The notes under the pieces were generated by a model, which was not told the origin of the DNA, made no database searches, and saw nothing but the letters and a program-made list of their open reading frames with translations. 55,376 bases of DNA. Source: Asterionella formosa. Its lineage: Eukaryota. Below, piece after piece: positions 7,711 through 54,830 of this stretch (its first letter is position 1; each line of letters begins with the position of its first letter). The stretch covers positions 1 through 55,376 of the forward strand of contig NKIB01013590.1 of NCBI GenBank assembly GCA_002256025.1, given 5' to 3'. Made by a program: the position numbers and the translations under genes.

Positions 7711-8667
7711 AGTTTGGATGCATATTATGAGCCAAGAATTGCATACTGGTATGTACACATTTCCTTACAAGTATGTATGGGTGAAAGGGCGCAAGTTTAT
7801 GATGCTCAAGTTACTTAGACACTATCAAGTGACAGGGATAAGGATATGACAGGAATCATACAACAAATAAATCGAAAGCGATAATGTTTTATCGAGTTGC
7901 GTATATCATATAACAATGAGTCCTCAAAACATGGGATAATCCGTGTTCTGGCAATATTTTCGTCGATCGCACTTTTCAACCGATATTTTAGGAAAAACAA
8001 ATTGCTATAAACTTATATCTAATGACATAGCATCAAAGCGTACATGCTCAAGATTAGGGTCGAAGTTTTAAAATTAACAAATCTGCATTTGGTAGGGTCA
8101 AACCGTGTTTTTCTCCTGTTCAGTGGGTCACAGCGGTTCCAATTTTTTTTAGTGGGTCACAGCAGTTTTTTACTGGTAGCAGTGATCAGAACTCCCAGTA
8201 CCAGCACCGGTAGACACAGTACCAGCAGTTACCCGGTAAGCGGTACCTGGTGCCGGTACTGGTACCATAATCTAACATTGTGCGTGGTAGGAGAGTTAAT
8301 TTTACTGGTTTATTACCGGCAGAAGGTATTCTACTGGTATTTTATCTGGTTTAAAATATTCGAATAAAGCAACAACCGGACGAACGATGATCACCATTAG
8401 CTAGATGTATTGTGTTCCAGATCCTCTGCCTCCTGCCCCATCTGTAAATAAATAGCGGCACCTCGTAGGAGTACCTACCTGGTACAGTGCTCCCTACCGG
8501 TATATTGGTGGGTCGTCGCAACCACAATTTGCCACCATGCTCAGGCTCACAGTTAGTCATCCTCACTCACTTGTTTGCAAATGATCACTACCGGTATGCT
8601 ACATGCCAGGAGTACATGATAGTTCAATTTACTGCAGCAATAATCTCAGCAGTAGCAAGTGCTTCGA

Positions 8668-9868
8668 ATGCGGCATTTCTTCCTTGTGATATCAGTATTA
8701 CTGCTTGCTTCATTGTTCTCTATCCTCCCCTCGCTCGAGCTGGACCAGAGGACACGAGATTTTACCAACGTACCTTCCATTGATGACAGAAAAGCATTGC
8801 AAGCCACTGCATTTGTCTTCGGCCCAGTCGTGCACATCGTCGTTACAAGATTCATGCAGCATCAACCTACTCTTGTCGAACTTGGTTCCGCCAGATTGGC
8901 TCTCTTTCGGGCGTTTTGCCTACCAACAATGATCCAGCAAAGCAACCAGAACTTCCTTTGGGTAATCCAGACGGACCCACATCTTGACTCGACTTTAATG
9001 CAAGAGATGGTCTCACTACTGCAACCGCATTCACACTTTTTCCTCTTGCTATCCAATGACAACGGCCAGAACTTCCGTCGACAGGCAGTGAACGAGAGCC
9101 TTGTTGCGTCGGGCGACGTTGCGCTATTGTCACAGGCGAGGAAGCTCTCTGAAGACCACATATTTATCGAAACTCGAATTGACGCCGATGACGGGATCAA
9201 TCTCCGTCTGCTGCAGAACATTCAACATGTTTCTATACAACGACTGTCAAATCCTCCTGTCAATAGTGCCTCTCGCTGGTTAGTCTTTTGCATCGACCGT
9301 CACTTTGAATGGCACAACGCGGATGAATCACCAGAGGGTGTATTGGTCCTTGTATCAGAGGCTATTTGCGTCACTCCAGGTCTATCGTTTGCAATGGCCC
9401 CGGAGGTGTCACGAGATTCCTTGCCAAAAGGCGCCCATAACCGCCTTGTGTACAAGGCTTCGACGTGTAAAACGCAAAACGAGACGGCCTGCATCTATCG
9501 CATGTATCAAATTCATCGAGCGGCGGCCATTCGGGCGAGAACAACAACCAGCGCAGGTATGGCCAACATTGGAAAGACCTTCGAGAAAAACTCCTCTACG
9601 AAATTATTTTGGGATGCTGCCTCCATAGATCTTGGTATTGATAAAGGGGACGTGATCAACGCGAAGGCATATCTAGATGTGAGAAAGGTGGATATTGCAA
9701 GAGAGAATTTAGATGGTCAATGGTACGTTAAATTTCGGATCTATTGTGATTTACTACTTATGAATTCATTGCCAAGCTAATCTGCTATGTAGTACCAAAG
9801 GTCACTCCTGTAAAGAAGAATCTCTTGAAAAGCTAAAGGAAATATTAAACAAGTCGTTAAATGTCTAG
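8668..9868 (+). CDS. Putative glycosyltransferase (putative rhamnosyltransferase-like), type II membrane or secreted; exons 8668-9722, 9793-9868
   Basis: N-terminal hydrophobic anchor; VVTRF, RLALFRAFCLPTMIQQSNQNFLW and TRIDADD (DxD) motifs; removing GT..AG intron 9723-9792 gives ...GQCTKGHSCK...stop. Confidence 0.7.
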
Positions 9869-9900
9869 GATTAACAACTTGTGCTGCGATCTTCGTTTCC

Positions 9901-11708
9901 TTAAGATTGATTGCCTTGCAACATGATGCTGCCTCGCTTTATCTTGACCGAGTCAAGGCTCCGTACGTTACAGCTCTCCTGCTTACCAGAAGACCTAGCT
10001 GAGTCGTCATTCAATTGAATATCAGTTGTGCTGAATCGGCGAAGGAAAGGGCGTCTGACTCGTATCGCCGAGGTTGCTTCAGCCTCGAGCGCCGATTTTC
10101 CATGCTGAGAATCATTTGAGATTCGAAAGCTCTTTTGTTTGTAGGAGTCAAGACCTCGAAAACTCCTTTCCTCATGGTTGGAACCCAATGACTCGTCATA
10201 AAACGAAATGTCAGTGGTGCTCAATCGGCGCAGTAAAGGACTCATAAATCTTGTCACAGCGGATCCTTGTGTCATTTCTCGCTGGATTGATTCATTTGAA
10301 GGATTATAACTTTGGTCTGGCTTGCTCGAGTCACAACTACGAACGCTTAGTCCCTCACGGTGGCAAGAAGACCCATCTGACTCGTCATTACACTGAATAT
10401 CATGGGTGCTGAGTCGGCTTACATTTGACTTGCCATTCAACTGAGTATCGGATGTGCTACTTCGGCGCTTGAAAGCGCTTCTCAATCTATTTCGAAAGGT
10501 TGAAGTTGTCACTTTTGACTGGCTTGGAGAAGATTGCTGTTTTCCCTGTTTCGCAACCGGGGCCCTGGTAGTAGCGACTATGTCTTCGAGTGATTTGACA
10601 ACACAGCCAAATGATGGCCGTTTGCTAGGGTCTTTATCCCAGCCTTGTTTCAGGAGAGCTCCAATCACTGACGATGAAATGCTCTTGATTGACGGCCTTT
10701 TGTTACCCCGAACAACGTCGGCATCGAAGACAAGATTATCGCTCACATCACCAAAAGCCCTCTTTAGCGTGCAGATTTCCCACAGTGTAATCGAAAACGA
10801 GTAAACATCACACCCGAAACCATAGTCTTGCATTGTAGCAACTTCAGGGGCCATGTATCTGATAACAATTAGTCGAAGTGTTGAGTTGTACTATATAATA
10901 GAAATCTTCGACGACAACAACAACAAAGAGTTCAGATTTATCGCGCTTACCTTGGAGTTCCACAATTTCCCGTCATATGCCTTTTCCCTTCGTTTCTCGT
11001 ATTTTCGGAGGAAAAGTTAGGGTGATACTCCCGAGCGAGACCGAAGTCAAAGATTCGCACGATACCATTTTCATCAAATCCAATGTTATGCGGTTTTAAA
11101 TCCCTGAAGATGATGTTCAGAGAATGTAAATGTTGCATTCCTCTTGCAATCCCGAGACCCACTTTATCTATACGACTAATCATGTCCTTGGAAGATGCCA
11201 TGTTCTGAAATGGGAAACATCGTTGATCTCTCCACAAGTCAAGTCGTGATTCAAGGGTACAAGTTAGCAGATCCAATACAAGAAAGTAACCTTCTTTATA
11301 TGCATGGCTATCAATACCGTAGTCTTTCCTGACCGCATAAAGTCTGATAATGTTTGGGTGATGTAGACTGGATAAAACGATGGCTTCTAGGATCAAATCA
11401 ACGGCACCAGTGATAAATTTTTCTGAGCTAAAATCTTGCTGGGGTCTTAGCGATTTCAGGGCATAGACTCGATCATTAAAATGTTGTCCATCCTTCAATG
11501 AAACCGTGTAAACTGACGAAAATGATCCTTTCCCAATGAGTCGACCTACTTCTAAGTTGTCCCAATCAAGATTTTCAATCTTGTTCTTCGGATGTGGTTT
11601 TAATTGTGTGTCGCCCTTCAGAGTGTCAACGCGAGACAAGATTCTGTCCCCGACCGATCGAGAATGAACGGATTGGTCTAAGGCTCGCAACTCAAGGCTC
11701 ATTTTCAT
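9901..11708 (-). CDS. Protein kinase (TKL-like) with Ser-rich repetitive C-tail; exons 11708-10951, 10858-9901
   Basis: GKGSFS, YALK, FRDLKPHN and DFG motifs; GTPR|YMAPE is restored by removing intron 10859-10950 (GTAAG..CAG); DVYSF follows. Confidence 0.92.
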
Positions 11709-13429
11709 GCATAATCTAATTTAATGCGAGGGAAAGTTTTTGAGACTTAGCTGAACGGAAATGAGGACAAGGTAAAAAAATTCAAGGTGCTCTGCCTTTT
11801 TGTAAATAACAACGATGGATAAATTACTTGCTGTAATTTCTCGTTTCGCTTCTTCTCAATATATTCTGCAAGTGCATTGGTATTCTGCCTGTACCTGTTG
11901 TGATGTCCTCGGACTTCGTGTGTGCATGCAAGATACGCAAGAAGTTGAGGTCATTGCCACTGAGGACATGAAGCCGGACAAGGCATTTACGTTTGTCGTA
12001 CTGTTGGAATGTCGTTGAATCGCTGTTGAAATCAATTACTGGTACCGGTATCGATTTCGAATCTGCCAAGCGAGCGACAGTGCCAGTAGACATATCAGTA
12101 ATCCAGTGAAAGACGAATCTGCTAACCCAGCGACAGTAGACATATCAGTAATTCAGTGAAAGACGTTAAATGGCAGCTAATATTATCAAAACCCTACGTC
12201 AGAAAATGACTACCGAATGACTTTGCGGAAAAGCTAAGAAAAGTCATCGACTGTAAGGAAATATTGGGAAGAAAATGCATGCAATTTTCCTGAACATCAT
12301 AATCGCCCGTAGTTTCTCTAATACCTTTTTTGTGGTCTCGAAGAAATTAATTATTTATATCCCTCTTTCGTAATTACATCAATTTAAGACATTCTCTACA
12401 TATGGTGACATACGCGCTTTTCCGGCGCCATCTTTGTTGTCCGTTTGATGAAAATGTCCAGATATTACCTCATAATTGAAATATGGGCGACGTGGCAGTT
12501 TTATTTTTAATGATGCAATCCTGTTAGGGTTCAGCTATGACTTCGAAGTTACAGACATATTTACCGGTAGTACCAGGGTACCAGTGTATTCATACAATGC
12601 AAGGTGCAAGCAATATCGATTTATGTCTTTACAACTACTGTCATCACCAGGTATGATAATTATCCGACGAACCCTTAAATACTTTTTAAAAATACCGAGC
12701 GACTGACGGTAATGATTTATTACAGTACCTGGTACACACAAACAAGTCGAGTTGGTATCATGTGAGAGTTTATTGTTCAACATTGCATGCACTACGTTAT
12801 CGCTCTTCCTTGTTGTAAATATAACGTAGCAAGCCCTGTTGCAAACTCACAGAAACGCAAGTTGCTCCAATTTGCTTTGCTAAAATGGACTACGTGACGC
12901 AGGACAGGCGCTTAAAAAACGAAGCAAAGAACGAAATAGAGAACGCCAATTCTATCCTTGAGCGAATCGACAGGAGTATCACGCGTTGTCAGTGACGTAG
13001 GCTTTATGGTAATTATTTCTTTTAAACTCGGAACCGTCAAAACGAGGGCTAATGGCTGAAAAAACAAGTAAATGACAATGACTGGAGCAATACGTAAAGA
13101 GGCGGCCCAAAGCGAAAAAGCGAAAGTAAGCGATAGTACTTAAGCAGCAGTAAGCAATAGTGGGTGTGCTCTGATAATAAATTTTTTTTACATCCTGTGT
13201 GTATTAGTAAGTCAAACACAAATTATATTGGCGATTTGATTCATAATATCGTCATTCCCCTTTGATAAACGAGAAAATTTAGATTACTTATCTGACATTC
13301 AATAAAAATTTAAATATAATTTATAACAGTTAAGTTTTCATAGTGATGCATCCTCTTGTACTATGCTACGCTGCCTCTTGTTCATTATATGCATGAATTC
13401 CATATATTCAACATCATTAGTCAGTGACC

Positions 13430-14460: not shown

Positions 14461-15209
14461 GAAAACCAGTTGAAACCTCTGTGGCTTGTTTGATAACTTA
14501 TAATATAATTTTTTCTATCTACTCTTCAAATAGATGAGAAAACTATTTTGATTGTAATCTTGGAGAGGGAGCAACATCCCAAATGCAAGAAAATACCATT
14601 AAAAAATCTGTACTTATTTTCATGGACTTACTAATTGTCATTGTTCATGTTTCTATGGAATTCTTGATTAGGTCATTTCTGAGTTTAAGGTAGACATACA
14701 TGCAAACATCCAAGAATACACTAACGGTACTTTCCTATACCGGTATGTGGCTAGAAAAGTTGGATTGTGGAAAAGTCATGAATTCACATGACCATCTCAT
14801 CGTGCATATGATAATGCAACACTTTGGTGCAAATATATCAAACCCGACATATCCCAACCAAGCCACGAGCCAGTTAAGGTGATCATCAAGATCCATACTG
14901 GAATATACTATCAAAGTTTGAAGGAATTTTTGTATTTTATGGATATATAAATTTATTCATATACCTATATAAGTTGGAAACTGTCGATACATTGAAACAC
15001 ATATTACCGCATGTAGAACGAGAACAAGACAATTTTTTGTCAAGAACGAGAGATTATGTGTTCAATTATTTTTACATACATTTACATATATATATACGTC
15101 AAACGTGGGACGGCCGACGTTTCCCGCTTATTTTCTCATCCAGGAATGCAACATGAAGCAATGGAAAAGTTGACATGATGTAGAAGAGAGAAGAATTGTA
15201 AGAATCACC

Positions 15210-15914
15210 ATGAGTCGTAGCACGGATCCAGACCCTCTTGCTGTCTTCTGCTACAATGCTGGGTCAACATTGGAAGACATTCTTCTTCTAGAGGAAGAGG
15301 AGCTCATTGAATTATCGAAGAATATTGTAGGCAACAGTGTGTTGGAACATGCACGTGTAATAAAGCAATGGCGACATTGCAGGATGGCTGCCCTTGTGAA
15401 CAAGGAGGTAGAAGAAGAGATGGCATATGAGAGTCTCTTTAGAGTGAGTGAAGAAAGGCCGAAGGAGGAAGAGGAAGAAGAAGTGGTGGACTTACGGGCA
15501 GCATGGGAAAAGGAGTACTACTTACTCTACGGAAAGAATGTTGACGAGAGTGACGCCCCGATGCAAACGCCAGCAATGCGTCAAGAAGACCTGGGTGAGG
15601 ACTGGAATCAATACATCAGAAGACAAATTCAAGAGCAGATGAGTGAACAGCTTGCCGAAGAATTGGATCGACGAAAGGCAGAAATATTGCAAGCCGATTT
15701 ATTCGACGCACAACATGTTCCAAGAACCATTAGCACAGCGAACTCCACGTTGTCTGACGAGGAATCGACTTGGTTTGAAGAGGTGACACAAAGTGGTCAA
15801 CTCGCAATTTCTACTGTTGCATCTGACATGCTGGCGATTATGGAACAAGGAGTTTCACTCTTTTTCGGTAGACCTGCGCCGTCGCAGAAATATAAAAGTA
15901 GTCGGCAGAAGTAG
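15210..15914 (+). CDS. Hypothetical acidic/coiled-coil protein (234 aa)
   Basis: Clean ATG-initiated ORF with gene-like composition; no family recognised. Confidence 0.65.
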   Translation: MSRSTDPDPLAVFCYNAGSTLEDILLLEEEELIELSKNIVGNSVLEHARVIKQWRHCRMAALVNKEVEEEMAYESLFRVSEERPKEEEEEEVVDLRAAWEKEYYLLYGKNVDESDAPMQTPAMRQEDLGEDWNQYIRRQIQEQMSEQLAEELDRRKAEILQADLFDAQHVPRTISTANSTLSDEESTWFEEVTQSGQLAISTVASDMLAIMEQGVSLFFGRPAPSQKYKSSRQK

Positions 15915-16501: not shown

Positions 16502-17185
16502 TTAATTGCAGACCACATCTTTGCATTCCGTCGCTTTATCAACATCAAGTTGGTCCTCTATTTCAGGCTCAGAGTTGGCAAGACATTCCCTTGGTGTCGG
16601 TGGAAAAGCGTTTGTCGGTAAAATGATAGCAATATAGCCGTCTAATATAGAATCTCTTTCCAGTAACTCCACCGACATGTTGAGGTTGATCTCAATTAGG
16701 AGTCCCCAAAGTCCCGCCAAGACTGATATCACTGTCCCCGCCGCGTCCGTAAGTTCCATTATTGGTGTTGATGGCGTCACGGCGCCACTCACGTTACCGT
16801 TTCCCTTTGATACTTTCGAAAGTCGCTTGCGTCGTTCAGCGTTGGAACATTCTGACCCAGGTTGAACTAGATATTTGACAGAAACAATGTCAGAGGAGAT
16901 GTTTTCGCCCAGCGTCACAATGCACAATCCATTGGCATGTCGATGTACAGTGAGTTTGTTGTGAATTCGCGTTGCCGTTCTTTCCTTGGTTGCATCCTCT
17001 TGCTTGCACGTTTTTGTGTATTGATCACTATTGCTAACCGAAACGACCACGTCGAACGATGACTGGAAAAAGGAATGCGGAGTTCCTGGTCGACCTGTTG
17101 GTTCGCGGGCGACCACAGATACATTGTCATAATAGGTCTCCTGATAGGGATCATGTTGAAGCTTTCGCTTCTTTCCTTTCCCCAT
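16502..17185 (-). CDS. ABITRAM: Simiate/ABITRAM (FAM206A)-like protein
   Basis: HRHANGLCIVTLG, SKVSKG, GLWGLLIEIN and DGYIAIILP motifs; ATG at 17185 (MGKGKKRK). Confidence 0.7.
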   Translation of the reverse strand: MGKGKKRKLQHDPYQETYYDNVSVVAREPTGRPGTPHSFFQSSFDVVVSVSNSDQYTKTCKQEDATKERTATRIHNKLTVHRHANGLCIVTLGENISSDIVSVKYLVQPGSECSNAERRKRLSKVSKGNGNVSGAVTPSTPIMELTDAAGTVISVLAGLWGLLIEINLNMSVELLERDSILDGYIAIILPTNAFPPTPRECLANSEPEIEDQLDVDKATECKDVVCN

Positions 17186-17776
17186 GCTGGTGGTCAAAGG
17201 CAATATTATTCTATTTACAGCTCAATGTATTGCGGAGTGGTTGAATTGTAAGGGTCAGGACATCAAGAAGGATCGTCAGGACCAGAGTCTAATATGATTT
17301 CTATGCTGTTGATGGTTCTCTCAAAAATAAATTGCATTGCTTGCGGCTTGCTTCCACGACGGGTTTTTTTCAAATTGATTGTAAGTACCGTTACTGGTAC
17401 CGGTATGTACAACTCAGCCTACCCCTGATACCAGGGAACCAGTACCTGGTTCTACCTGTGCTCCTGCCTACATAAAATGAAATAAATGTATTTACACGTG
17501 TTTTATTTTTAGTTTGCATGAATATACCGGTATACTACATATTTTATCATACCTGGTACCAGGGTACCGCATCATTTCAAGACTTCGCTCTCGCACAGCC
17601 ACCCAATAATAACCGCTAATCGACACGAGTCGAGCCACCATCATCATGCATCATTTGACTGTGAATATGACGAATACTAAATCTGCTGGAGTGAAGACAT
17701 TTTATGCCCGAAACAATCCCCGTCAGGAAGCAATCTAGCAACTGGTACCTGGTACCAGGTACCATTATTCCCTTCC

Positions 17777-19081
17777 ATGTTTGGTGGGTCATTGTATTGG
17801 TGCATGCTACTATTGACACTTGTCGCCACAACAAGAGGAGTGCTAGGAAGCAGAGCTCTGTTCAAAACTGCCTCGTCGGCTTTTACCTTTTCTCAACTGC
17901 AAGCGGCGACACGTTTGCAGCAATCGAATACCGGTAGGCAGACCACATTCGTGTCACTGGCCACAATCAACGACATCATGTCGGCACCACAGACACACCC
18001 AGAAACCAAAGCCAAAATTGTATCATCGGAGCAGCTCCGAGAATGCGGGAAACGCCTTCGGCAAGGCGAGCTAGTGGCCTTTCCGACGGAAACGGTCTAC
18101 GGGTTGGGCTGTCATGCTCTCGACCCAGATGCCGTTCAGAAAGTATTTGCTGCCAAGGAGCGACCTTTGACGGATCCCTTGATAGTTCACGTCAATAATG
18201 CAGCAGATGCACTCAAATTGTGGCAAGCGCACTCCGACAAGGCCCTCCTCGCACTAACGACTACCTTTTGGCCGGGCCCACTCACCCTGGTGGCCAAGGC
18301 CGCCGCCAATGTTCCACAAATATTAATGGCCAATACTGGGTTTGTAGCCTGCCGGTCGCCCTCGCATCCAACAGCAAGGAAGTTAATTGATTATGCCCAA
18401 ATACCCATTGCAGCGCCATCGGCAAATAAATTTGGACATGTTAGCCCAACAAGGGCTGCACACGTATGGGACGATTTGCAATTCGAAGATGTGTGGATTG
18501 TCGATGCTGAAGAGGTGTGCAACGTGGGGGTCGAATCGACAGTGGCCAAGGTGATGGATGATGGACGTGTGACAATATTGAGACAAGGAGCCATTTCGGT
18601 GGAAGATATTGCAGCATGTTTGCAACAGGCTGGGTTGACACATGTGGTCGACAGTGATATCGCTAGGGCTGTCAACGATCATGTGGCGACAATAGCACCT
18701 GGTCAATCGATTCGACATTACTCGCCTAATATTCCAAGTTTTATTGTAGCATCTGCAATATGTACCGCACCACTAACCGCGGACGATAAATCGGCTCTGG
18801 ATACTGCCATTATTTTGGATTTCGGGGGACTGCTTCAGACTTGGAATGGTAGTGCCTTAGCTTATCGAGATTTGAGTACAACGGGAGACTCAGCCGAGGC
18901 AGCACGGGCCGTCTTTGAAGCTCTTAGATGGGCAGAACTGGTTGAAGGTGGATCACGAATCTTATTCCCAGAGTTGAAGTCTGTTGCGGGAACTGATGCT
19001 CTCACTTTGGCGCTCAAGGATCGGTTGACAAGAGCTGCTAGTGGCGTTGTTATTGACGCTCTCAGACAACAAATTGGGTAA
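17777..19081 (+). CDS. SUA5: Threonylcarbamoyl-AMP synthase (Sua5/YrdC, t6A37 biosynthesis) with N-terminal extension
   Basis: VAFPTETVYGLG, KERPLTDPLIVHV, FWPGPLTL, AAPSAN, VGVESTV and the PGQ..RHYSP linker before a Sua5 C-domain. Confidence 0.95.
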   Translation: MFGGSLYWCMLLLTLVATTRGVLGSRALFKTASSAFTFSQLQAATRLQQSNTGRQTTFVSLATINDIMSAPQTHPETKAKIVSSEQLRECGKRLRQGELVAFPTETVYGLGCHALDPDAVQKVFAAKERPLTDPLIVHVNNAADALKLWQAHSDKALLALTTTFWPGPLTLVAKAAANVPQILMANTGFVACRSPSHPTARKLIDYAQIPIAAPSANKFGHVSPTRAAHVWDDLQFEDVWIVDAEEVCNVGVESTVAKVMDDGRVTILRQGAISVEDIAACLQQAGLTHVVDSDIARAVNDHVATIAPGQSIRHYSPNIPSFIVASAICTAPLTADDKSALDTAIILDFGGLLQTWNGSALAYRDLSTTGDSAEAARAVFEALRWAELVEGGSRILFPELKSVAGTDALTLALKDRLTRAASGVVIDALRQQIG

Positions 19082-41981: not shown

Positions 41982-42100
41982 CTTGTACCCTGGGTACCTG
42001 GTACAAGGTACCTGGTACCAGGTACTGTGGACATCACATGATCTGGTGGACCACATTGCTTCGTGGTACCTGGTACCTGGTACCTGGTACCTAGTACCAG

Positions 42101-42172
42101 AGTAGGTCCGGTAAACGAGAACTTTAGCTCAATCATTTTTTGAAGTAAAAACGTGTTTTTACCAGACCTTCC
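42101..42172. mobile_element. MITE family 2 (GGAAGGTCCG-type TIR), CAG target-site duplication
   Basis: AGTAGGTCCGGTAAA / TTTACCAGACCTTCC flanked by CAG on both sides. Confidence 0.65.
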
Positions 42173-42335
42173 CAGGTACCGGTACCCTGGTACCACTGGT
42201 ACCTGGTACCAACAAGATGAGACGAAACAATCATCCCTACCGACATTGCGTTATTAAATATAAAATGATAAGAAAAATAACCCCTACCGCAAAAGTCTTG
42301 CACATCAAACAGCAGTATCGCATATACCGGTAGTC

Positions 42336-43364: not shown

Positions 43365-45872
43365 GGTGCATCATTGTTTAATTAAAACTTTGGATTGCCA
43401 TGCTTATAAAATAAATATCAATTTGACAACCACAACAAATTAGGCACTTACCCTAGTACAAATAGGTTCCCTTGAGCGGAGCTTCTCCATGAACTGTTGA
43501 TTGTTGATCAAAATAAGACTGATTGTCATACACAGCCATGGGTGTGGTAGGATTCCAAGAAAAAGCAAAACTGCTTGAAAACACAGCCAGATTGACCTCC
43601 AAATTTTCCTTGGAATGAATAGATTCCTCTTAGGAGATGACAGAATTTTCTTCATTTCCAAACAACTATTTTATCACCTTTGTTACAGAGGGATTGATTG
43701 TCATTGCCGTCATTGTACCTAATTGAAGTTTAAGCGATTGACCTGTTTTCATGGACCAATCGATTCATGTCTTCGTCATTCTCGCCCTACTCAATAATTT
43801 GTGAAAGGAATGGCTACATGATTTTGAGTCTTTATATGAAGCAGAAAATTGCTTTGGTGCTAAGATAGCTATCCTCGCCAGTATTCCCTCTTTTTAACCC
43901 TAAAACATTGCACCTCCCCCTCCAATAACAGACCTGAACAAGGATAGCCACCTAGACACCTTCCAGAGGACATCCACGTCCTGATCCTTTGGGTAATCTA
44001 TGTATTCCCCAGTGTATGCCATTGTCCATTTGCCAGGATGAAAAATGGTGCATAATATTGCCTTTGAAAGGAGACCAACTTCCAAATAGTAGGGCAGAAT
44101 GTCACATCCGGAAATTAATTCAAAAATTCGTCCATCTAGCTTTGCATGATTGCAACCATGATCCTAAACTAGCACCATCGCTCACCCAGAACCAGTGGTC
44201 ATCCCCCAGGGTAGTAGGGAGTGGTACCAAGTACCAGGTACCTTGTACACCAACTACCTGGGACCAGGGTATGCGGTAATTTTGCTACATCTAGTTCCAT
44301 ATACCACTTTGTACCGGCAATACTGATTCCAATTCCGAATTAATACATGTGTCTCTTCTTGATATCCATTTAATAACCCAACCCGACCGGCTTGTTGTTC
44401 CTATGTATATATATAGTTTTAATCTGACTTAGCCTACTAAATATTGAGACCAATCTGTTTTGCTTATTCCGCCATTTGCTTCTCATTCATTTTGATTAAT
44501 TTAGGACCGTGGCTTAAAGTAGATTTGCCTAAAGTATGGTAGTTTTGCTTAAAGTATATTTCCTTAGAGTAGTTTTGCTTAAAGTTGCAATTTTTCTTTT
44601 TGTGACGTCATCATTTCAATACTGCTGCCATCACAGTCACCTACAACCTATGTGCGTAATCATACTGTAGCTATAACTATGATACTGAATATGCACCGGT
44701 AGTTGTGTAGCTAGTTGCAAGTGGCTGGAGAATCCTTCATCATCATCTCATTGCAGCGTTGACCATGATGAAAATAGCAAATATCTCGACGAAAAATGAG
44801 AACGATGCTTTCCTCTTTTATCAAACACGACATAGATAGTACAATCGTAAAAGAATAATCCTAATAGCACTAATATTGACAACGAAAATTGAAGTCGCCG
44901 CTGGCACATTTTTTCAGTAGTGTCATCCTGTCTTCCATCATTATGGAACAAGATTATGTACTACTACCGGTAAATCGGAACTTCCCAAACAGGGTTGAAA
45001 AAGAGAAAACTATTCGTAAATTCAACTGCCCATTGGCATTTGCACCACAATTGCACCACCGATTGCACCACTATTACTTAGAGAAACCAAAATTGCACCG
45101 TCAGACTACCCATTTATAAAATCCGTGCTACGGCCTGCACTACCGTAGTGATATTTTCTACATAGGATCACGATCAGATTCATATAAGATATGTATTTTG
45201 TAGTAGCCAACGGCCGTAGGCTACCCGGTGGTACATACATGTAATGGGACATACCGGTACTAATAAAGTATTGCAAGCATTTTGTATCATATATATAGGT
45301 TACTACCAGTAATGAATTTTTAACTAAGGCACTCCTTGCTGACGTCATATTGTCGCTGCACCACATTGCACCACCATAGACCTACTGGTACTCCGGTAGT
45401 ACAAGGTACTGATTTAAGTACCGGTATATGCCTTTGGGCGTAGAGCAATATTAAATCTACACGGTGCAACTAGTAAGATTCAATATAAATGTATAAAAAA
45501 TATGTGTTAACCTCATTTTTTAAGCGCCTTAGTACTACTCTATGATTAGTAGGGGAGCCAGCACCAAGCCTGGGTTTTTTAATTGCAAATACTATTGAAC
45601 CCGCCTAGTAACAACCCAACAGTTGTGGTGTCTCTAGGTGCTTGTGTGCGGGGAAATAAAGGTGGATACACTCTCTCGAATGAGAGTTGGAGTTTGTTGT
45701 TGTGGTGCCGAAATGCTTTGATTAATTGCCAGTCTCCCGCCTTGGGGTTTAACCGGTGAAGAAAGATGTGCTCTTGGTTTGTGAGCGAAAAGTATTTTTC
45801 GGCCACACTGAGGTTTGGGGAATGTCTTGGGCTTGAGACTTTCGGGGAAGTGTGCTGTAAAATTTATTTTAA

Positions 45873-46700
45873 CTACTTTTGTCCTTTTTGGGCCATTCTG
45901 GCTGACTCTTCAAAGAGGAAATCTGGTTTTTCTAGAAACTTCTTTTTCTTTCCCAGATTTGCCTTCATTAGATCTGGCAAGAACTGGGAAAACAGGTGAG
46001 AGTCCCTGGTGTGTATTGTGTGCTGTTTGAGATACAGTTGCTTGAATTTTTCATCATATGCTGAATGTACTATATCCTCATGCTGTCCTCTGTGAAGAGT
46101 CTCGTTCCATTCCTCCCATGTTTTCAATACTACTAAGCTCCAAATTTGGGAGATTGCGTTTTTAGTCCAGTTCTGTGACTGAGATTCCGTCATTTCTTGT
46201 TCGGGGTCAGATAATATGACCTCGCTCCACCTTTTGGTGAGGTAACCTCGGAGAGTAGGGGAGCACCCTATTTTGGTTTGAATGTCGACTGCAGCCTTAA
46301 TCCTGGCTCTGGTATTGAACGTGATATGGGAAGGATAGATTATCTCGAATTGTGCAGACGTGCTGTTATTCAGGACATGATGGAGATAGGCCACAAAGAT
46401 GTGAGAGATTGGTTTTCCTCTCTTCGCATGATAAATCTTTGATGCAAGAAAAGTCATGCGGACTCCTCTAGCGATTTTTGGATTATTGCACTCTAGCAGG
46501 TGGTCGGTAGTCTTGAGATCTGTGCAGTGCGGGCATGTGGAGTCTCCCTGTGCCGCAAGAGCCCGCTTGGATCCTGTAGGAAGCCATCCATGGATAAACT
46601 TAGAAAGCATTGTTTGCTCCGACATAAAGCGCTGGAGAAAGCAGCCCAGTTAATATCTGTATACTCAAATGAAATCTTGTGTTTTGCCTTGAAAAAATGT
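45873..46700 (-). mobile_element. Non-LTR retrotransposon C-terminal fragment (post-RT zinc-finger region)
   Basis: KFIHGWLPTG, CPHC..TTDHLLEC, QTKIG..LRGYLTKRW, IW..WEEWNETLH; typical LINE C-terminus, no RT core present. Confidence 0.75.
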
Positions 46701-47591
46701 ATAAAAAATATCATGAGTAAACATATTGGCATACTCCTGATTTAATTTGTGTTTTGGTGTGGAGCAAAATTATGTCTACATTCAGTGATGTAGAGATAGT
46801 ATAAAGGTTTGAATATCATTTCGGTTTGTTTAAATGGGAGCTCTATCAATCTGGCGCTGACTCTCATTTAATCCAAATATTCAAATGGGCACTCGAATCA
46901 TGGGAACTCATAGCAGCAAACTCCTTGTTCCATGCCGTTTTTACAGCCCTAGCGACATTTTCTCCAAACTACCCGGTAGGGTTAAGCCGAGGGCCACTAC
47001 CTTAAACAAAATTTTGCTTAAAGTACGTTTTCTTAATGTAGAGTCAATTTTCTTAAACTAACGTAGTCCCTAAATATTTGCTTAAAGTAGAGTCAATTTG
47101 CTTAAACTAACGTCAAAATTACAATTTGTCAGAGCCTGTTTTGTCCCTAATTATCTGAATTTATCGAATTTTGTCCAGTCGTCTTTATTTGGGCCTGCGG
47201 GGGCAAGCCGTTAGAACTTTCATACTTAGATTTCTTAATGGCTGCTGAGTCGGGAATATTTGTCGGCTTTGGGAAATGAGTACACGAATACCGGTAAGCA
47301 AAATTGACGCAACTTGGTGGTACCTGGTACCAGGTAGACTTCTGTATGCTTGCCGATTACTATGTTGCATTTAGCTATGTACATTGCACATGCGTACGAA
47401 AAGCATGTGGATCATACGATTCGACACCATCGAAGGATGGTGGGCCTGACGAAGAAAACAATATGAGTACCGTTAAGCTATCATTTTGTACACTAACATA
47501 CCTAAATGTGCTATCTGTAGTCAGCAATGGAGTACATACCACTTCCAGCCCATTTGTGGTACCAGGTACCGGTATTTGTGCTGTGTACCAA

Positions 47592-47679
47592 CAAGTTTCG
47601 GTCATTTTGCTTAAATAAACAAATTAATATGGGGTAAAGATAGCTAAACGTTTAGTTTCAGCACGATTACCGCAACTTG
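47592..47679 (+). mobile_element. 88-bp MITE family 1, copy 4
   Basis: Same TIRs; flanks GTAC-CAA and CAG-GTA. Confidence 0.82.
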
Positions 47680-48415
47680 CAGGTATCATGTGAATTCCAG
47701 CCAGCCATCTCCTCTGCTCGTACTTTCATTCTATGTATGCACCTCGTACCTGGTACCTGGTACCAGATACCGGTAGTCAACAAAGGAGGCCAAAAAAAAG
47801 AATCTTCTTATTCCCCGCAGATTGGTCATCAAACATACATCTTAAAGTACGTTTTCTTAATGTAGAGTCAATTTTCTTAAACTAACGTAGTCCCTAAATA
47901 TTTGCTTAAAGTAGAGTCAATTTGCTTAAACTAACGTCAAAATTACAATTTGTCAGAACCTGTTTTGTCCCTAATTATCTGAATTTATCGAATTTTGTCC
48001 AGTCGTCTTTATTTGGGCCTGCGGGGGCAAGCCGTTAGAACTTTCATACTTAGATTTCTTAATGGCTGCTGAGTCGGGAATATTTGTCGGCTTTGGGAAA
48101 TGAGTACACGAATACCGGTAAGCAAAATTGACGCAACTTGGTGGTACCTGGTACCAGGTAGACTTCTGTATGCTTACCGATTACTATGTTGCATTTAGCT
48201 ATGTACATTGCACATGCGTACGAAAAGCATGTGGATCATACGATTCGACACCATCGAAGGATGGTGGGCCTGACGAAGAAAACAATATGAGTACCGTTAA
48301 GCTATCATTTTGTACACTAACATACCTAAATGTGCTATCTGTAGTCAGCAATGGAGTACATACCACTTCCAGCCCATTTGTGGTACCAGGTACCGGTATT
48401 TGTGCTGTGTACCAA

Positions 48416-48503
48416 CAAGTTTCGGTCATTTTGCTTAAATAAACAAATTAATATGGGGTAAAGATAGCTAAACGTTTAGTTTCAGCACGATTACCGCAAC
48501 TTG
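48416..48503 (+). mobile_element. 88-bp MITE family 1, copy 5 (produced by the 824-bp duplication)
   Basis: Identical to 47592-47679. Confidence 0.82.
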
Positions 48504-49342
48504 CAGGTATCATGTGAATTCCAGCCAGCCATCTCCTCTGCTCGTACTTTCATTCTATGTATGCACCTCGTACCTGGTACCTGGTACCAGATACCGGTAG
48601 TCAACAAAGGAGGCCAAAAAAAAGAATCTTCTTATTCCCCGCAGATTGGTCATCAAACATACATATATGTCGGTATGTGTACATATTTAAGTTGTATCGT
48701 TACCAGGTAATGTTTGTGGTATTCTCGTATTTTACACCATGCATACAATATACCATCCTCTGGGACTGTACACTACCGGTATATTTAAAGCGTGCGTACT
48801 ATTGTTTGTATTTCTTCTTATTTAGTATCCGTGAATTTTCTAGTTTTTGTTTGTTCGGTTGGCTACCGGGTATACTAGCTGCTACTGTGCGACGATTGGT
48901 GAGCGATAGGGCAACAGTGTACTCCAGAGTCCAGAGAACTCCAGGTCTGGTACCAGTACCTGGTCCTGGTACCTGTTAGCACGAACACGACACCAGGCTA
49001 CCGGTACAAGGTATGGTGGAGTACCTCGTACCTGGTACCTGGTACCAGTGCAATCAATCAGAGGAAATAAGGTAGACTACCGGTACCTGGTAACGGTACC
49101 AGGTAGTGAAGATCATCCTGAACGGACGACGAAGCAGAGCCCGAAGAAGAACTGTCACATTACAACTACCGTTTTCAATTCAACAGATATATAGGAAGTC
49201 GGAAGGGCTGGTCACTGTTGCTTGCTCTACCTCGCTAAGCAGGAGATCCAGGAACAGTGGAAACACCTCTGGTTTGAGTGGATCCTCGTTACTTGTCCAG
49301 TGTGTTTCATTTGTTGGCGGAGACTTTCAGCTCCTGTAGGGC

Positions 49343-52300
49343 ATGATCGGCAGTATGCAAAGTCCATGGCAAGCTGACCTTTCCCTTCAGACCGGAGACG
49401 AGGATTACTTGGTTGAAACAAATGACCGCGGTTGGATGGGAAATATGATTGAGCGATCCACTTCTGCACCGCCAATCTCTACCGCGACAAAATTGAATTT
49501 CATGAATGTATTAGGCAGCGAACCCGCTGGTGCGAATGTACGTACCGGTGTTCGATTTGCATTGTGTTTATTTTCTTCGTTTTCCTTGCAGATTCCTTAC
49601 TAGCTTCGCTCAGTTTTTGTTCGCGGGCTCTCAAGCGCATTACATGGGAGAGGAATCCAGTTTGTTTAGGCAGAGTAGCCGCGATTCTGCGCCGCCAGAC
49701 CAGGTACATGTCCCGAGTTCTTCCTTCCTTGCTGGCTTGCGCGATAATACAGGGAGAGCAGCTGCGCCTCATACGGGGTATGGGGATACAGACGCATTGT
49801 TGAACAGCGGACTTTGCGAGAATGCTGGGTTGTATCGGTCTGGAAGTGTTGGCGCAGAGTATTCGGGTTTGGGGTATGACGAAAATCGTCGGATTGATGA
49901 GAACATTGTGCGCTCTCGGTCAGCGGCGCCATCTCTTCTCAGTCGGAACTCTCTTGGACCTCCACCTGGACTCGGAATGAACGGCAATAACGAAGATATC
50001 TCTCCCTCACTTTTCGGAAGTACACCAACTCGAAGCCATATCATGGAGATTGGTCAGCGACGTTCCGCGTCGACTGGAGTACTCGGTGACCCAGAGCATT
50101 ATTCCTCCCTTTCGTCGTTTGGTATTGAGTCGAGTGCTGAACGTTGTACTGTTCGCCCAGCTCCCAAAACTCTAATGGACCTGATTCAAGAAGACATTCC
50201 CCATGATTACCCACATTCGCGACCACAAACGGCTGCACCATACTTGGAACGCGAGGCTGCGAGCTACGGTTACTCACATCGACCGAGAAGTATATCACCG
50301 CCCCAATCACACATAGTGGACTCACAGCGGGGCTATCAAGCTCAGCGACGTGAAGTTGACCCATACCACCAGCACGAGAATATTGAAAGTCTAAATTATC
50401 AAATGGACCAATTGCAAGTTGGACCCGGACAGTACAGGCAGATCCATGGCCAAGGGCAACCGCCGCAATATCAGGTATGAAGCAAATGCATCATTGAAGG
50501 TTTGCTTATTTCGTTCAGCTATTCACTTTCTGTTCTCCCCACAGCACCGCGAAACAGCTCGAGAACAGCAATACACATCCTTTCCTGTTCCCGCGCATTC
50601 TCATCGTGGTGGACATCGAGCACAAGGCATGAATCCTCAAATGCGCCAGCTGCAAGAAAAACAGCAAGTACCAATCTATGCACCTGCCCGTGGTCACGGT
50701 GCCCAATTACACCGTCACCAACAGCACTCACCTCCACCTTACGATGGTCAGCCTCAAGTCTACTACACCAGTGGACAACACGGTGTTCAAGCTCAGCAGA
50801 TGACGCACCAACAGCCACAGCTTCAATTTCTTCCTTCTGGTCAGGCAGTCTATGTCCATGCACCACCCCAATATACTTATAACAATGTTCAATACCACCA
50901 GCAGGCCCAGCAAAGTCAACTTGTTCATCATTCACATCAACAGGTAAATTCTGATCCACACCAACAGTATATTTCTATTATGCCGGTCGCTCCCGGTGGA
51001 GGACAGGTTGCTTATTGGCAGCATCAAGAATTACAAGTTGCTGGGATGGCACCCGCAGCTGTGATTATGCATCCTCGTGATGGCGGACAGCAACAATTGT
51101 CGATGGTTCATTCGCCTCAACATGGACGATCGAAAGGCAACGGGCATGTAGGAATGCGTAGCCCAGCAAATGCCACTGGAAAGGCTCGAGGTGGTCGCGG
51201 TTCTGGACGAGGACGAGGCGATGCGCATGTTAAGAATGTCGTGGGAACACCTCTCGCTAGCCCGCTCCTAGAGGAGTTTCGAGCAACAAAAAATCGCGAT
51301 TGGACGATGCTAGATATCGTGGGGCATATTGTTGAATTTTGTCAAGATCAGAACGGTTCTCGTTTCATTCAGCAACGCCTTGAGGTTGGGAACCCGGACG
51401 AGCAGCAGGTTGTAATGAAAGAAGTGTTGCCTGCTGTGCGACAGCTCCGCAACGATGTTTTCGGCAATTATGTGGTACAAAAGCTCCTAGAATTTGGAAC
51501 GCCGGAAATGAAGGCATGTTTGCGAGACAGCTTGCAAGGTGAAATGCTTCCACTTTCTCTTCAGATGTATGGGTAAGTGAAAGTAAAACAGTTCTGTTCA
51601 GCATAGTCATTCTGTCCCAAATCTGACACATCACCATTTGCAGCTGCCGCGTGGTTCAGAAGGCATTAGAGACATTGAGCGAGGATGATTTGCCACGTCT
51701 ACTAATGGAGTTCCATCATAGTGTCTTGAACTGCATTCATGATCAGAATGGGAACCACGTGATACAGAAGTGTATCGAAGTTTTGAGTACGAAAGCTAAG
51801 CAAGCAATGGCTGCCAAGGATTGGGCTCGTGCTGATTTTTTCTGCCAAGAAATTAATTTTGTTCTTGATGATGTGCTCAATAATGTCGTCTCCCTTTCCT
51901 GTCATCCGTATGGATGTCGTGTCTTGCAGCGTATCCTTGAGCATTGCATCGACGATAATAAGAATAGGGCGCTTGATGAGATTGCGAAGTGGCATAAGGT
52001 GCTCCTAGATGACCAATACGGGAATTATGTTATTCAGCATGTACTCCAATACGGGCGAAACTCTGACCGGCAATCAATCTTAGGTATCGTTGTTCAGAAC
52101 GGACTGCTGACACTGTCGAAGCAAAAGTTCGCCAGCAATGTTGTTGAGAAGCTTTTAAAGTATGGAACCCCTAGCCAGAGAAATGCCCTTGTTAGAGAAA
52201 TGCTGAAGGTAAGCATGTGTAATATGGTTTCCCCTGGTATCGTCCTGCGTAGAGATTCTAACGCGAGTTTGTGAAATTAAGCGCGTCGATGATGCTAGTG

Positions 52301-52555
52301 GATCTGGAGATTCTAGTGTTGTGCTCCTCATGGTTCGCGATGCTTACGCCAACTACGTTGTCCAGACAACCTTGGATGTTGTTTCCGAAGGAGAAGAGAA
52401 GACTTTGCTATTGGAAGAATTAAATGCTCACTCTACGCAATTGGTATGTACATACCGGTATCATTCTTCATTTGTGGACAATCAAAAATTGACTAACATT
52501 TTTACAGCGCAATTACACCTTCGCCAAACATATTGTAACAAAGTTGAGTTCCTAA
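49343..52555 (+). CDS. PUM: Pumilio/PUF RNA-binding protein; introns ~49538-49613 (uncertain), 50475-50544, 51573-51643, 52209-52281, 52444-52507
   Basis: Eight Puf repeats (DQNGSRFIQ, FGNYVVQ, YGCRVVQ, NGNHVIQ, YGCRVLQ, YGNYVIQ, FASNVVE, YANYVVQ) ending YTFAKHIV; Q/H-rich low-complexity N-terminus. Confidence 0.92.
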
Positions 52556-52883
52556 ATCGTCACAAAAAATGTAATGAGATCCCGGGCAGATACTGATCAT
52601 GCTATGCTGACGAGCCTGGAGGGATGTGAAGGTCTGTTAAAAATTGTATATTTCTGAACAGATAAAATGTGGGGGAACTATTTTATATGTACATGCATCG
52701 TATGCTTGAGAAGAGCGCATATATGAAGATAAAAAGTGAAGATTATGACTATAGCTCGTGAGAATGTGAATAAGCAAACAAACGTTAATACTAATGGTAT
52801 GGATATTGCTAGTATATACCAGTAGAATCTGAATCAACGCTGTATCAGTATGCGCGTTATTAAGTGAGTGGGCAACTTGGACG

Positions 52884-53825
52884 TTACAACTCTTTCTCTG
52901 CAATCTTTTTCTTGCCCTTTGTCCTTGTACGCTTTTTCTTGGTCAAGTCAGTGACAGCACCATCAGTCTGTCCATTCACGACAGGCGATACTTCATGTTC
53001 GATCTTTTCAATTCTGGGTGTTGAACCCTGAAAGGGGGCGAGGACATATCCCATAAGATAATAAAGGGAATTGAAAGGGCTGAAAGCTGGTCCCAAAAAT
53101 TGTTGGATTTGTAGAATGCCAACGATTTGCATGAATGCACTAATAAATACGACACCAAACGTGGCATCATCCATTCCCACTTGAATGGATGGTACCGAAT
53201 GCACGGCATTTCTAAGCGCAATTCCAACCGCGCCCTTCTGGTCAAAGACAAAGAAATGGTACAAGGTAGCACAGAACAAGCCATTTTGAAACGGCCAAGG
53301 CATGCCCTTTTCAAGATGTCCGTGAAATCCTTTGAGGAAGAAAGGACCCATGTTACCTAGAAGAGTCGCAAACACAATGGGCCCGAAGATTGGTGTAGGG
53401 TAGTATGCGGAAGGTGCGTCTTTGAACGCTTCATTTGCGATAGCAACGAACTTGACCACCCCCATCGTTCGGAATAGGGTTGAAAATATGGCCGTAACGA
53501 GAGAAATAGGGATGGTGTTACCAAGCTTGTAGCCTAGATCAAAGGGCAAGTAGTTGGCGAGAAAGAATGCGATGATACAAGCGGCCAGACTCAAATCATT
53601 GGAAAAGATAGAGGTTGGCCTTCCCATCCACAACGGTGCGAAAAGCGACCCCCCATAGCCAGAAATCACACTCACGCAGAAAGCGTGGAACCAGTGCATC
53701 TTTCGGTCATTGTTTGGTCCATTCCGCACCGCCATGGCACCTTGATAGGCCATCCAGAAGCACTGACACTCATCTGAACCAGGAAACTTTCCCGTCAGGA
53801 GTTGCAGGACAAAGTTTAGGGCCAT
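52884..53825 (-). CDS. Multi-pass membrane protein, probably TRIC/TMEM38-like cation channel
   Basis: About seven hydrophobic segments; SVISGYGGSLFAPLWMGRP..SND and ATLLGNMG glycine motifs; basic C-tail. Confidence 0.6.
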   Translation of the reverse strand: MALNFVLQLLTGKFPGSDECQCFWMAYQGAMAVRNGPNNDRKMHWFHAFCVSVISGYGGSLFAPLWMGRPTSIFSNDLSLAACIIAFFLANYLPFDLGYKLGNTIPISLVTAIFSTLFRTMGVVKFVAIANEAFKDAPSAYYPTPIFGPIVFATLLGNMGPFFLKGFHGHLEKGMPWPFQNGLFCATLYHFFVFDQKGAVGIALRNAVHSVPSIQVGMDDATFGVVFISAFMQIVGILQIQQFLGPAFSPFNSLYYLMGYVLAPFQGSTPRIEKIEHEVSPVVNGQTDGAVTDLTKKKRTRTKGKKKIAEKEL

Positions 53826-54209
53826 GTTTGTATTCTAGTAACCTCTACCTTGTAATGTGTATATCGATGTCAGGGACTACCAGTGCGCGACACAATTTTG
53901 GTTCTGGGAAAAGCTGGATACCGACAGGTCAAAAGCGAAACCAGAGATCATCGATGGAACTTTAGCTGGGATGTGGGTATGATGTCAAGTAGTTCAGCTT
54001 GATCGGCAGTTGTCCCCAACCACGCACATAATAAAATCACATTCAAATTTTTTATCGAGCGAGGGACAAGTACCTGGTACCTGGTACCAGTACCCTGGTA
54101 CTGATGCACACCATGCATGTGACTGTGCTGAACAATCAATCAGAGGAGTTCCAGGTATACCGGTACCGGTAGTAGGTAATACAATTGACCTTGTAAGATC
54201 GTAAGAAGG

Positions 54210-54262
54210 GGAAGGTCCGAGTATGTTTTGTACTTAGCAATATCTCGATTACCGGACCTTCC
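54210..54262. mobile_element. MITE family 2, short copy
   Basis: Perfect 10-bp TIR GGAAGGTCCG / CGGACCTTCC. Confidence 0.55.
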
Positions 54263-54595
54263 TGGATTTAGTTGTATACCTGGTACCTGGTGTGTGCATA
54301 CCGGTACCAGGTACCCAATTACCGGTATATGTGGTGGCAATGGTGGTTTGGTACCTTGTACCAGGTACAAACTAGCAGCTAGACCAGATACCGTTACACG
54401 GTAACCGAATAGAAAATAGGTCCGGTAGGGCATCATCGCGCTGCAGCAACCACGAACAATGACAAAACTGATGAACACATATACCGGTATGCACACAAAA
54501 ATGTATGAATATAGGTAAATTCATTGGTGTAACACCACAAGCTACAAAAGGGCGAGCGACTTCTGGTATATTACCCGGTACGACTTATGTACGAG

Positions 54596-54676
54596 GAAGG
54601 TCCCCAAATCGAAATGATTACCGGTAGCTAGCTTATAGTCTTTGTCGAAGAAAAAACCGTGTTTTACCGGACCTTC
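54596..54676. mobile_element. MITE family 2 copy
   Basis: GAAGGTCC / GGACCTTC; the 3' part GAAGAAAAAACCGTGTTTTACCGGACCTTC matches the 3' part of the 42101-42172 copy. Confidence 0.6.
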
Positions 54677-54830
54677 GACAGGGTACCTGGTACCAGGTAC
54701 TTACTATGACTCGTCTACAATGATTCCTAAGGGTCGTTCTTATCATTCCGAATTTGCTGTATCATTTCCGGGTTGCGGGCAAAAAGTGACGGTTGGTATC
54801 AAAACACGGTATCAGCAATGGTAACTTGAT

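Follow-up and report, generated by a model that had tools for sequence, protein, structure and literature searches.

The closest described relatives of the element reported here are promoter motifs of oomycetes. The 8-bp palindrome TACCGGTA is listed as the high-confidence promoter motif M94 of Phytophthora infestans, beside a sister palindrome, TACATGTA (M93) (PMC3597505); it corresponds to the inverted-repeat motif-9, GTACCGGTA, which lies upstream of 1,284 Phytophthora genes (PMC3520976), and to streme-5, ATACCGGTAT, of Plasmopara halstedii (PMC10031896). The sister palindrome (M93/AM-20) is bound by the single-Myb-domain protein PsMyb37, as found by yeast one-hybrid assay and gel shift, and knockout of PsMyb37 reduces the expression of many target genes (PMC11134190). 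Here we describe TACCGGTA and its variants in a stretch of DNA from the diatom Asterionella formosa (contig NKIB01013590.1 of assembly GCA_002256025.1, positions 1 to 55,376 of the forward strand; this whole stretch of 55,376 nucleotides is called the window), where the palindrome is highly over-represented, forms dense tandem arrays and is placed at the 5' ends of genes.

We regard it as fairly probable that a palindromic cis-regulatory site, putatively bound by a dimeric factor, forms homotypic clusters in the proximal promoters of this diatom and that replication slippage has expanded them. The palindrome itself is a known stramenopile promoter element; its occurrence in a diatom, a second spacing form and the dense tandem arrays are new as far as our searches reach. 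In a literature search that left subscription journals and figure-only logos uncovered, the array strings GGTACCTGGTACC and GGTACCAGGTACC were not found and 11-mers appeared only in primer lists. Within the same limits, no paper linking diatoms to the motif was found, the diatom matches being cloning sites or an unrelated iron-response element, ACACGTGC.

Results

A preliminary description of the window had reported iterated GGTACC-containing palindromes with a 7-bp period, and counting bears out both the over-representation and the period. The palindrome TACCGGTA occurs 43 times, compared to a mean of 0.26 and a maximum of 2 in 100 dinucleotide-preserving shuffles of the window, while GGTACCWGGTACC occurs 21 times with 0.01 expected from the shuffles. 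GGTACC is found at 77 sites, with about 6 expected from dinucleotide content, and TACC-W-GGTA at 45 sites; in a k-mer scan with k = 5 to 8, the most over-represented words were TACCGGTA, TACCWGGTA and GGTACC words. When GGTACC sites follow each other within 40 bp, the spacing is 7 bp in 21/38 cases and 6 bp in 3/38, and Tandem Repeats Finder (TRF) reported many head-to-tail period-7 and period-6 arrays of 2-14 copies with 80-100% match, many of the period-7 arrays having 2-6 copies. Most copies of TACCGGTA stand alone (29 of the 43 have no GGTACC on either side), and a logo of its flanks showed A or G at position -1 in 33/43 copies and C or T at position +1 in 31/43. TACC-W-GGTA lies inside GGTACC-W-GGTACC in 38 of its 45 occurrences. 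The core is therefore better described by the half-site RTACC/GGTAY, which makes up TACCGGTA, TACC-W-GGTA and GGTACC in different arrangements. Since GGTACC is the 2-bp overlap of two adjacent sites, palindromes follow one another with overlap along a GGTACCW run. All counts of core sites below refer to the TACCGGTA, TACCWGGTA and GGTACC forms (n=165 in the window).

Two further properties of the arrays were considered as signals and dropped. Array strands fold into hairpins better than shuffled sequences do (z -2.7 to -5.1), which follows from the palindromy of any palindrome array and does not discriminate. A T/A asymmetry was seen in the window, where T-GGTACC-A and A-GGTACC-T stand at 24:3 and CCTGGTACCAGG and CCAGGTACCTGG at 8:0; at the other loci listed from a metagenome scan (see below) the ratios were 117:68 and 42:43, and the asymmetry was not reproduced.

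The core sites are concentrated on the 5' sides of genes. Gaps upstream of genes hold 126 core sites in 9,226 bp (13.7 per kb), and the tandem gap 38559-40239 holds 21 in 1,681 bp, all at 38770-39492 by the 5' end of a FYVE gene, the 3' half of this gap (39493-40239), behind the ThiF gene, having at most 1 site. Taken together, gene-upstream gaps (the tandem gap included) account for 20% of the window and contain 147/165 core sites. There are 4 core sites in 20,133 bp of coding DNA (0.2 per kb, about chance level), 14 in 22,578 bp of transposon or unknown DNA, and 0 in 1,758 bp of convergent 3' gaps. For all 13 host genes, the 600 bp ahead of the ORF (open reading frame) contain one site or more. 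A site lies no more than 300 bp upstream of the ORF in 9/13 host genes and no more than 300 bp after the stop in 0/13 (sign test for 9 vs 0, ~0.004), and the number of sites per promoter ranges from 1 to 21. The stronger length-controlled contrasts are those between the 300 bp upstream and the 300 bp downstream of genes, and between 5' gaps and transposon or unknown DNA. The view that the palindromes are highly iterated and tied to gene 5' regions is upheld by these counts, with sites upstream of 13/13 genes, and the DNA is, as had been proposed, eukaryotic (a diatom; see below).

Positions 36000-55376 were compared with contigs from two independent DNA runs and two RNA runs. The RNA contigs of two studies stop 14-21 nt apart at 49187/49201 (the Pumilio, or PUF, gene) and 41765/41786 (ThiF), and single RNA contigs stop at 42300 (TrmO), 53943 (TRIC) and 38775 (FYVE). 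At PUF, ThiF, TrmO and TRIC these ends fall ~80-210 bp short of the nearest array, and the FYVE contig ends within a TACCGGTA; another TACCGGTA, at 42325, is within the TrmO RNA contig, 11 bp ahead of the ATG. For five genes, the listed RNA contigs leave the arrays uncovered, which holds for the contigs and is no proof of untranscribed arrays. The RNA contig ends, of which those at PUF and ThiF, where two studies agree, were the ones given weight, are a weak hint that the arrays lie in the proximal promoter.

The arrays are not assembly artefacts. The preliminary description had named this as a possibility that would undo it, and it is dismissed by independent public assemblies, which show the same arrays with unit-sized indels. 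A contig of another study (X7 record 26) spans 53999-54755, differing in 3 letters and by 14 gap letters, and coding contigs of 1.7-2.4 kb have 0 gaps. In the contigs of other runs the indels within arrays include +TACCGG, +TACCTTT and 2-bp deletions, with 14-20 gap letters across 54.0-54.7 kb, and such metagenome contigs may mix strains or loci. Overall, the arrays look length-variable. DNA contigs break at the arrays, and the summed depth in bins bearing arrays or an 88-bp miniature inverted-repeat transposable element (MITE; both occur there) exceeds that of single-copy bins by factors of tens to hundreds. From 13 to 24 contigs per run abut array edges (42064-42066, 42090), and their flanks are mutually unlike, with an agreement of 0.37-0.43, indicating that the samples contain many further loci with the same arrays and with no longer element in common.

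The ten clusters of the preliminary description are all present. At 8242-8597, 5 core sites, with degenerate half-sites from ~8180, lie upstream of the plus-strand gene at 8656 (rhamnosyl-transferase-like by Pfam), and 5 more at 12041-12734 lie upstream of the minus-strand protein kinase gene 9901-11720 (Pfam). The divergent gap between ORF 16502-17221 (-) and the Sua5 gene 17777-19081 (+) carries 11 core sites at 17396-17763, including a GGTACC-W x3 array at 17744-17763, and the divergent gap between the EF-G (-) and pseudouridine synthase (+) genes carries 14 at 21951-22315, with a palindrome of 13-bp arms at 21950-21983. The 6 core sites at 33613-33969, 5 of which are TACCGGTA, are upstream of a FYVE-ankyrin-RING gene (34061-35253, +). 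On the 5' side of the gene for a 1000-amino-acid FYVE protein (-), the 21 core sites at 38770-39492 include TACCGG/TACCGA period-6 and GGTACCW period-7 arrays, and another 21 are found at 41993-42333, in the divergent gap between the ThiF/rhodanese (-) and TrmO (+) genes, with four perfect GGTACCT units at 42065-42091. The clusters at 47289-49105 belong to a set of 42 core sites in 47017-49529 and extend across two near-identical tandem copies of an 824-bp segment (47017-48664) and on into the DNA ahead of the Pumilio gene. The duplicated unit is a promoter-like segment with arrays and a MITE. The last array before the Pumilio gene ends at 49105, and the RNA contigs of two studies begin at 49187 and 49201. 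A final 22 core sites at 54071-54699 lie upstream of the minus-strand TRIC-channel gene (ORF end 53834; RNA contig to 53943).

Two places in the window are weaker. ORF 15174-15914 (+), which had been described, as the gene at 15210, as having a single upstream site, has exactly that, a lone TACCGGTA at 14738-14745, 436 bp upstream, and it is the gene with the weakest signal. The cluster reported at 44-45 kb stands in part: the short array GGTACCAAGTACCAGGTACC is there (44223-44245), in repeat-rich DNA where it adjoins a truncated MITE end, but as a cluster it is loose, consisting of this one array and three scattered TACCGGTA (44965, 45252 and 45419) among dispersed repeats. Within the same unannotated region (43.4-47 kb), positions 44724-44900 have 76% identity to L019:3912-4093 and L118:465-599, two intervals in the metagenome loci; given the very high DNA contig depth, this segment is either a dispersed repeat or a conserved unannotated exon.

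The 88-bp MITE has the terminal inverted repeats CAAGTTGCGGT... / ...ACCGCAACTTG and occurs in 5 window copies, 4 of them independent, as well as at L009:892-979 and from L063:397 onward; it is thus a small multi-copy element with terminal inverted repeats, as expected of a MITE. The copy at 38851-38938 has the flanks GGTACCTG and CTGGTAC and sits inside TACC-T-GGTA with a perfect CTG duplication, and contig loose ends at 38850 and 38939 agree with its borders. The copy at 47592-47679, between the flanks GTACCAA and CAGGTAT, appears to split TACC-A-GGTA with one changed base and was recopied at 48416-48503 by the 824-bp duplication. The flanks of the copy at 41894-41981 (TACGTG and CTTGTACC) have the appearance of a degenerate split motif with two mismatched bases in the duplication, and the copy at 22105-22192 has no clear split motif in its flanks and no duplication. 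Outside the window, the duplication in L009 has a one-base mismatch, and the L009 and L063 copies look like degenerate or partial split motifs. Judging from these insertion sites, a Tourist-like MITE appears to target the motif centre, and the motif does not appear to be a footprint of the MITE. An ORF for a DDE_Tnp_4 (PIF/Harbinger-type) transposase is located at 5033-5686 (-), with flanking ORFs up to 7764 that have no Pfam match; terminal repeats were looked for around this transposase ORF and none were found, nor was a link to the MITE.

One metagenome scan with GGTACCWGGTACCWGGTACC returned at least 123 loci (L001-L123), and the results below are among the matches listed. Of these, 34/123 have more than 55% G+C and carry plain (GGTACCW)n runs within long ORFs, and 74 have 38-48% G+C; a 20-mer string of the GGTACCWGGTACCWGGTACC type alone is not diagnostic of the diatom feature. 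The 34 high-GC loci were treated as an unrelated phenomenon and do not enter the counts; nor do L017 and L044, as overlapping copies of L016 and L043, or L021 and L066, whose Pfam matches are bacterial. The 50 long ORFs from 32 mid-GC loci are mostly eukaryote-type (Noc2, TCP-1, mitochondrial carrier, PP2C, DUF6824), and one mid-GC locus encodes a phosphomannomutase whose best named relatives are diatom proteins at 50-55%. When the window was compared with the 123 listed loci by blastn and tblastn, none was orthologous, and the only matches were to the MITE or repeats, with one weak kinase match.

In the mid-GC contigs, the clusters lie between ORFs. The 46 clusters with at least 4 sites are distributed over divergent gaps (4), tandem gaps (10) and a convergent gap (1, L020), and over contigs with an ORF on one side, where they are on its 5' side in 17 cases and on its 3' side in 11, with no ORF nearby in the remaining 3. 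In tandem gaps, the promoter half was richer in 8 and the 3' half in 1, with 2 ties (129 vs 67 sites; binomial p 0.039). The forms of the site were compared as well. TACCWGGTA and TACCGGTA occur 240 and 6 times in one locus series (A, 120 kb) and 117 and 10 times in another (B, 63 kb), compared to 45 and 43 times in the 55-kb window. The scan selected for the 1-bp form, which inflates the TACCWGGTA counts, and the 15-fold lower density of the 0-bp form is left unexplained by that selection. The spacer grammar differs between diatoms, the window having both forms equally and the others almost solely the 1-bp form. A Ty1/copia polyprotein ORF on the minus strand of L035 (L035:1-4149) has a cluster of 15 sites ~820 bp upstream (L035:4968-5118), and a retrotransposon promoter region may carry the same motif at this locus.

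The window, with a G+C content of 43%, comes from the nuclear genome of a freshwater diatom. Introns are few or absent in its genes, whose repertoire is typical of eukaryotes; ORFs and Pfam (the scan covered 43 window ORFs) identified Sua5, an organellar-type EF-G, a pseudouridine synthase, FYVE proteins, ThiF/rhodanese, TrmO, Pumilio and a TRIC channel. The best named relatives of the EF-G ORF are diatom proteins at ~78% identity (Thalassiosirales, Fragilaria, Nitzschia and others), and closer matches are at 89-100%. Public runs containing the window stretch carry the labels freshwater, lake-water or algae metagenome. An atlas search with ORF 26627-27391 gave no usable match. Introns of the Pumilio gene lie between 49537 and 52507. 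Three with GT..AG ends and lengths of 70-76 nt (49537/49614, 50471/50542 and 51571/51643) are confirmed by RNA contigs from two studies, and two more GT..AG joints of 73 and 64 nt (52205/52279 and 52442/52507) are listed in both RNA runs; the X14 RNA contig continues past the Pumilio joints into the convergent TRIC gene. Tandem repeats are found at 3046-4039 (187 bp x 5.3 copies), at 30996-31997 (498 bp x 2, 98% alike) and at the window start, where 1-91 is (AACAACGAC)n.

Discussion

A cis-regulatory role, one of several offered in the preliminary description, appears to be the reading that the sequence supports best. Two RTACC/GGTAY half-sites in inverted orientation, separated by 0 bp (TACCGGTA) or 1 bp (TACC-W-GGTA), would be read together, a layout that fits a homodimeric DNA-binding protein, and by analogy with the oomycete system a single-repeat MYB-related factor would be the leading candidate. 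A GGTACCW run would then offer overlapping binding sites 7 bp apart. Self-complementary units of 6-7 bp may be prone to replication slippage, by which arrays would lengthen and shorten; the hairpin folding together with the unit-sized indels makes slippage the likely engine of array growth. Since nearly every host gene in the window has sites, housekeeping genes included, the bound protein would probably affect transcription or chromatin as a general promoter-architecture or activating factor, rather than switching a small regulon on or off.

Several observations weigh against this reading. The gene map is our own, drawn from ORFs, Pfam and a few RNA contigs with no formal annotation, and transcript starts are not fixable from the RNA contigs. 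The statement that convergent gaps are site-free holds as a count, but as a contrast it is weak because those gaps are of small size: when whole clusters are counted and length is taken into account, P is ~0.2 in the window. A polyA RNA contig from another locus carries an array and a MITE end, indicating that arrays are transcribed at some loci. Among the metagenome loci, one cluster lies in a convergent gap (L020) and 11 one-sided clusters lie on a 3' side. In 26 long mid-GC loci, the gaps of 50-2,500 bp that were seeded comprise 4/12 divergent, 4/24 tandem and 0/14 convergent ones, a contrast that leans towards the promoter reading and is suggestive, not significant (~0.06 by gap count, ~0.3 by length). 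Gaps not picked by the scan are mostly motif-free, with at least one site in 3/8 divergent, 3/20 tandem and 1/14 convergent gaps, and near-universal presence at promoters may be restricted to this species or this window. The assignment to a MYB-related factor relies on a palindrome with a different central dinucleotide in a distant lineage. Finally, as many as 21 sites per promoter are far beyond the need of one factor, and much of the array length may be neutral.

In a rival explanation, the arrays are promoter microsatellites without a function of their own; single TACCGGTA or TACCWGGTA sites would be functional or serve as seeds, and the 7-bp arrays would be neutral slippage in nucleosome-free, weakly constrained DNA. 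Head-to-tail arrays of period 7 and period 6, hairpin folding that favours slippage (z -2.7 to -5.1), a site number per promoter anywhere from 1 to 21, differences between populations (unit-sized indels and numerous gap letters) that are confined to promoter DNA, and (GGTACCW)n in unrelated high-GC DNA (34/123 loci listed) are all consistent with it. We nevertheless hold it to be unlikely, as neutral microsatellites would be expected in transposon or unknown DNA and in 3' gaps too, and the counts there are 14 sites in 22.6 kb and 0 sites, respectively. Moreover, a word that recurs at almost all promoters, and again in one other diatom or more, calls for a common cause, and 29/43 TACCGGTA stand alone. 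A signal in DNA modification or structure, with CCWGG, CCGG or GTAC serving as methyltransferase substrates or with cruciforms marking origins, insulators or recombination sites, is very improbable. Every motif form is a restriction-type palindrome and the potential for hairpins or cruciforms is strong, the 13-bp-arm palindrome at 21950-21983 included, but any palindrome array folds well, so that folding is unspecific, and no matching methyltransferase was found among the 43 window ORFs scanned. In addition, the identical 8-mer is a stage-linked promoter motif in oomycetes (PMC3597505).

The preliminary description had also suggested that the arrays are the accumulated footprints of a transposon acting in open chromatin. 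In its specific form, the arrays would be target sites or leftovers of a site-specific DNA transposon, the 88-bp MITE with an autonomous PIF/Harbinger-type partner, in open promoter chromatin. Part of this idea survives, in that a MITE does lie inside the motif with a CWG duplication: copies are found in or beside 4 clusters, one of them splits the motif perfectly with a CTG duplication, degenerate versions of this are suggested by two others in the window and by the L009 and L063 copies, and a DDE_Tnp_4 transposase ORF is present at 5033-5686. The motif is not the footprint of the MITE, however, because the MITE interrupts existing motifs, so that the motif came first, and because a 3-bp duplication cannot give periods of 6 or 7 bp. 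The arrays consist of motif units only and contain no inverted-repeat remnants, and the flanks of arrays elsewhere are unrelated (agreement 0.37-0.43). Furthermore, 6/10 clusters have no MITE, MITE ends are present in only L009 and L063 among the 123 loci listed, and no terminal repeats were found for the transposase ORF. Leftovers of a transposon are thus a very improbable source of the arrays.

Returning to homotypic clusters of a cis-regulatory site, a more far-reaching version can be put forward as a tentative and, as a whole, rather doubtful proposal. The motif would be a lineage-specific diatom promoter code, in which a dimeric, probably MYB-related general factor reads RTACC/GGTAY upstream of most genes and sets the nucleosome-free region, with spacing that is species-specific, slippage that tunes promoter strength, and a Harbinger-type MITE that homes to the centre of the palindrome. 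If true, the homing of the MITE would suggest that its transposase complex shares or borrows the recognition of the host factor. How promoters are defined in diatoms is little understood, and engineered expression in them still depends on a few borrowed promoters. One word present at nearly every promoter in 55 kb, common to oomycetes as well, would give a handle on a conserved stramenopile regulatory factor. As a simple signature, the motif would also help to locate promoters and gene starts where diatom assemblies and metagenomes lack annotation, and the arrays would serve as a natural system of variable-length binding sites for studying the evolution of promoter strength.

With respect to known systems, the likeness to cyanobacterial HIP1 and to REP that had been proposed for the arrays proved superficial. 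HIP1 (GCGATCGC) is spread through coding and non-coding DNA of cyanobacteria, and REP/BIME are imperfect palindromes that are transcribed, mostly 3' or intercistronic, and paired with RAYT (Y1) transposases. What is alike is an 8-bp palindrome over-represented by two orders of magnitude. Unlike HIP1, the window motif is at chance level in coding DNA (4 sites/20,133 bp), and unlike REP/BIME it is placed 5', with 0 sites in convergent 3' gaps; the host is a eukaryote in both comparisons, and no Y1 transposase was found by Pfam among the 43 window ORFs. The MITE resembles Tourist-like PIF/Harbinger MITEs in its small size (88 bp), multiple copies, lack of coding capacity, terminal inverted repeats and position near genes, and one copy has a perfect 3-bp duplication; a DDE_Tnp_4 transposase ORF lies in the same window. 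The target of Tourist-like MITEs is usually TWA, whereas the window element appears to duplicate CWG within a specific 9-bp palindrome, and its landing in the motif centre would be a rare instance of sequence-specific targeting by such elements. The PIF/Harbinger transposase complex includes a Myb-like DNA-binding subunit.

General promoter factors that are thought to keep promoters nucleosome-free include the Drosophila GAGA factor on (GA)n, DREF on DRE (TATCGATA), and yeast Reb1, Abf1 and Rap1. Their sites are alike in that they are short words, sometimes in tandem arrays, at many promoters and just upstream of the start; in sequence and lineage they are unrelated, so that the comparison is one of analogy and not of membership. 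The oomycete TACCGGTA is closer. In the available text of the oomycete reports, the TACC-W-GGTA form and tandem 7-bp arrays are unmentioned, and the window has both; the oomycete sites are described there as single and tied to stage- or infection-induced genes, whereas the window motif is found at housekeeping genes with up to 21 sites per promoter. The 8-bp palindrome, its R...Y flanks and its abundance upstream of genes are the same, and both hosts are stramenopiles. The window has two of the features by which M94/motif-9 is recognised, namely the core with purine and pyrimidine flanks and over-representation upstream of genes. A dimeric binder, as the palindrome implies, would be common to the oomycete TACCGGTA and TACATGTA and to the motif in this diatom.

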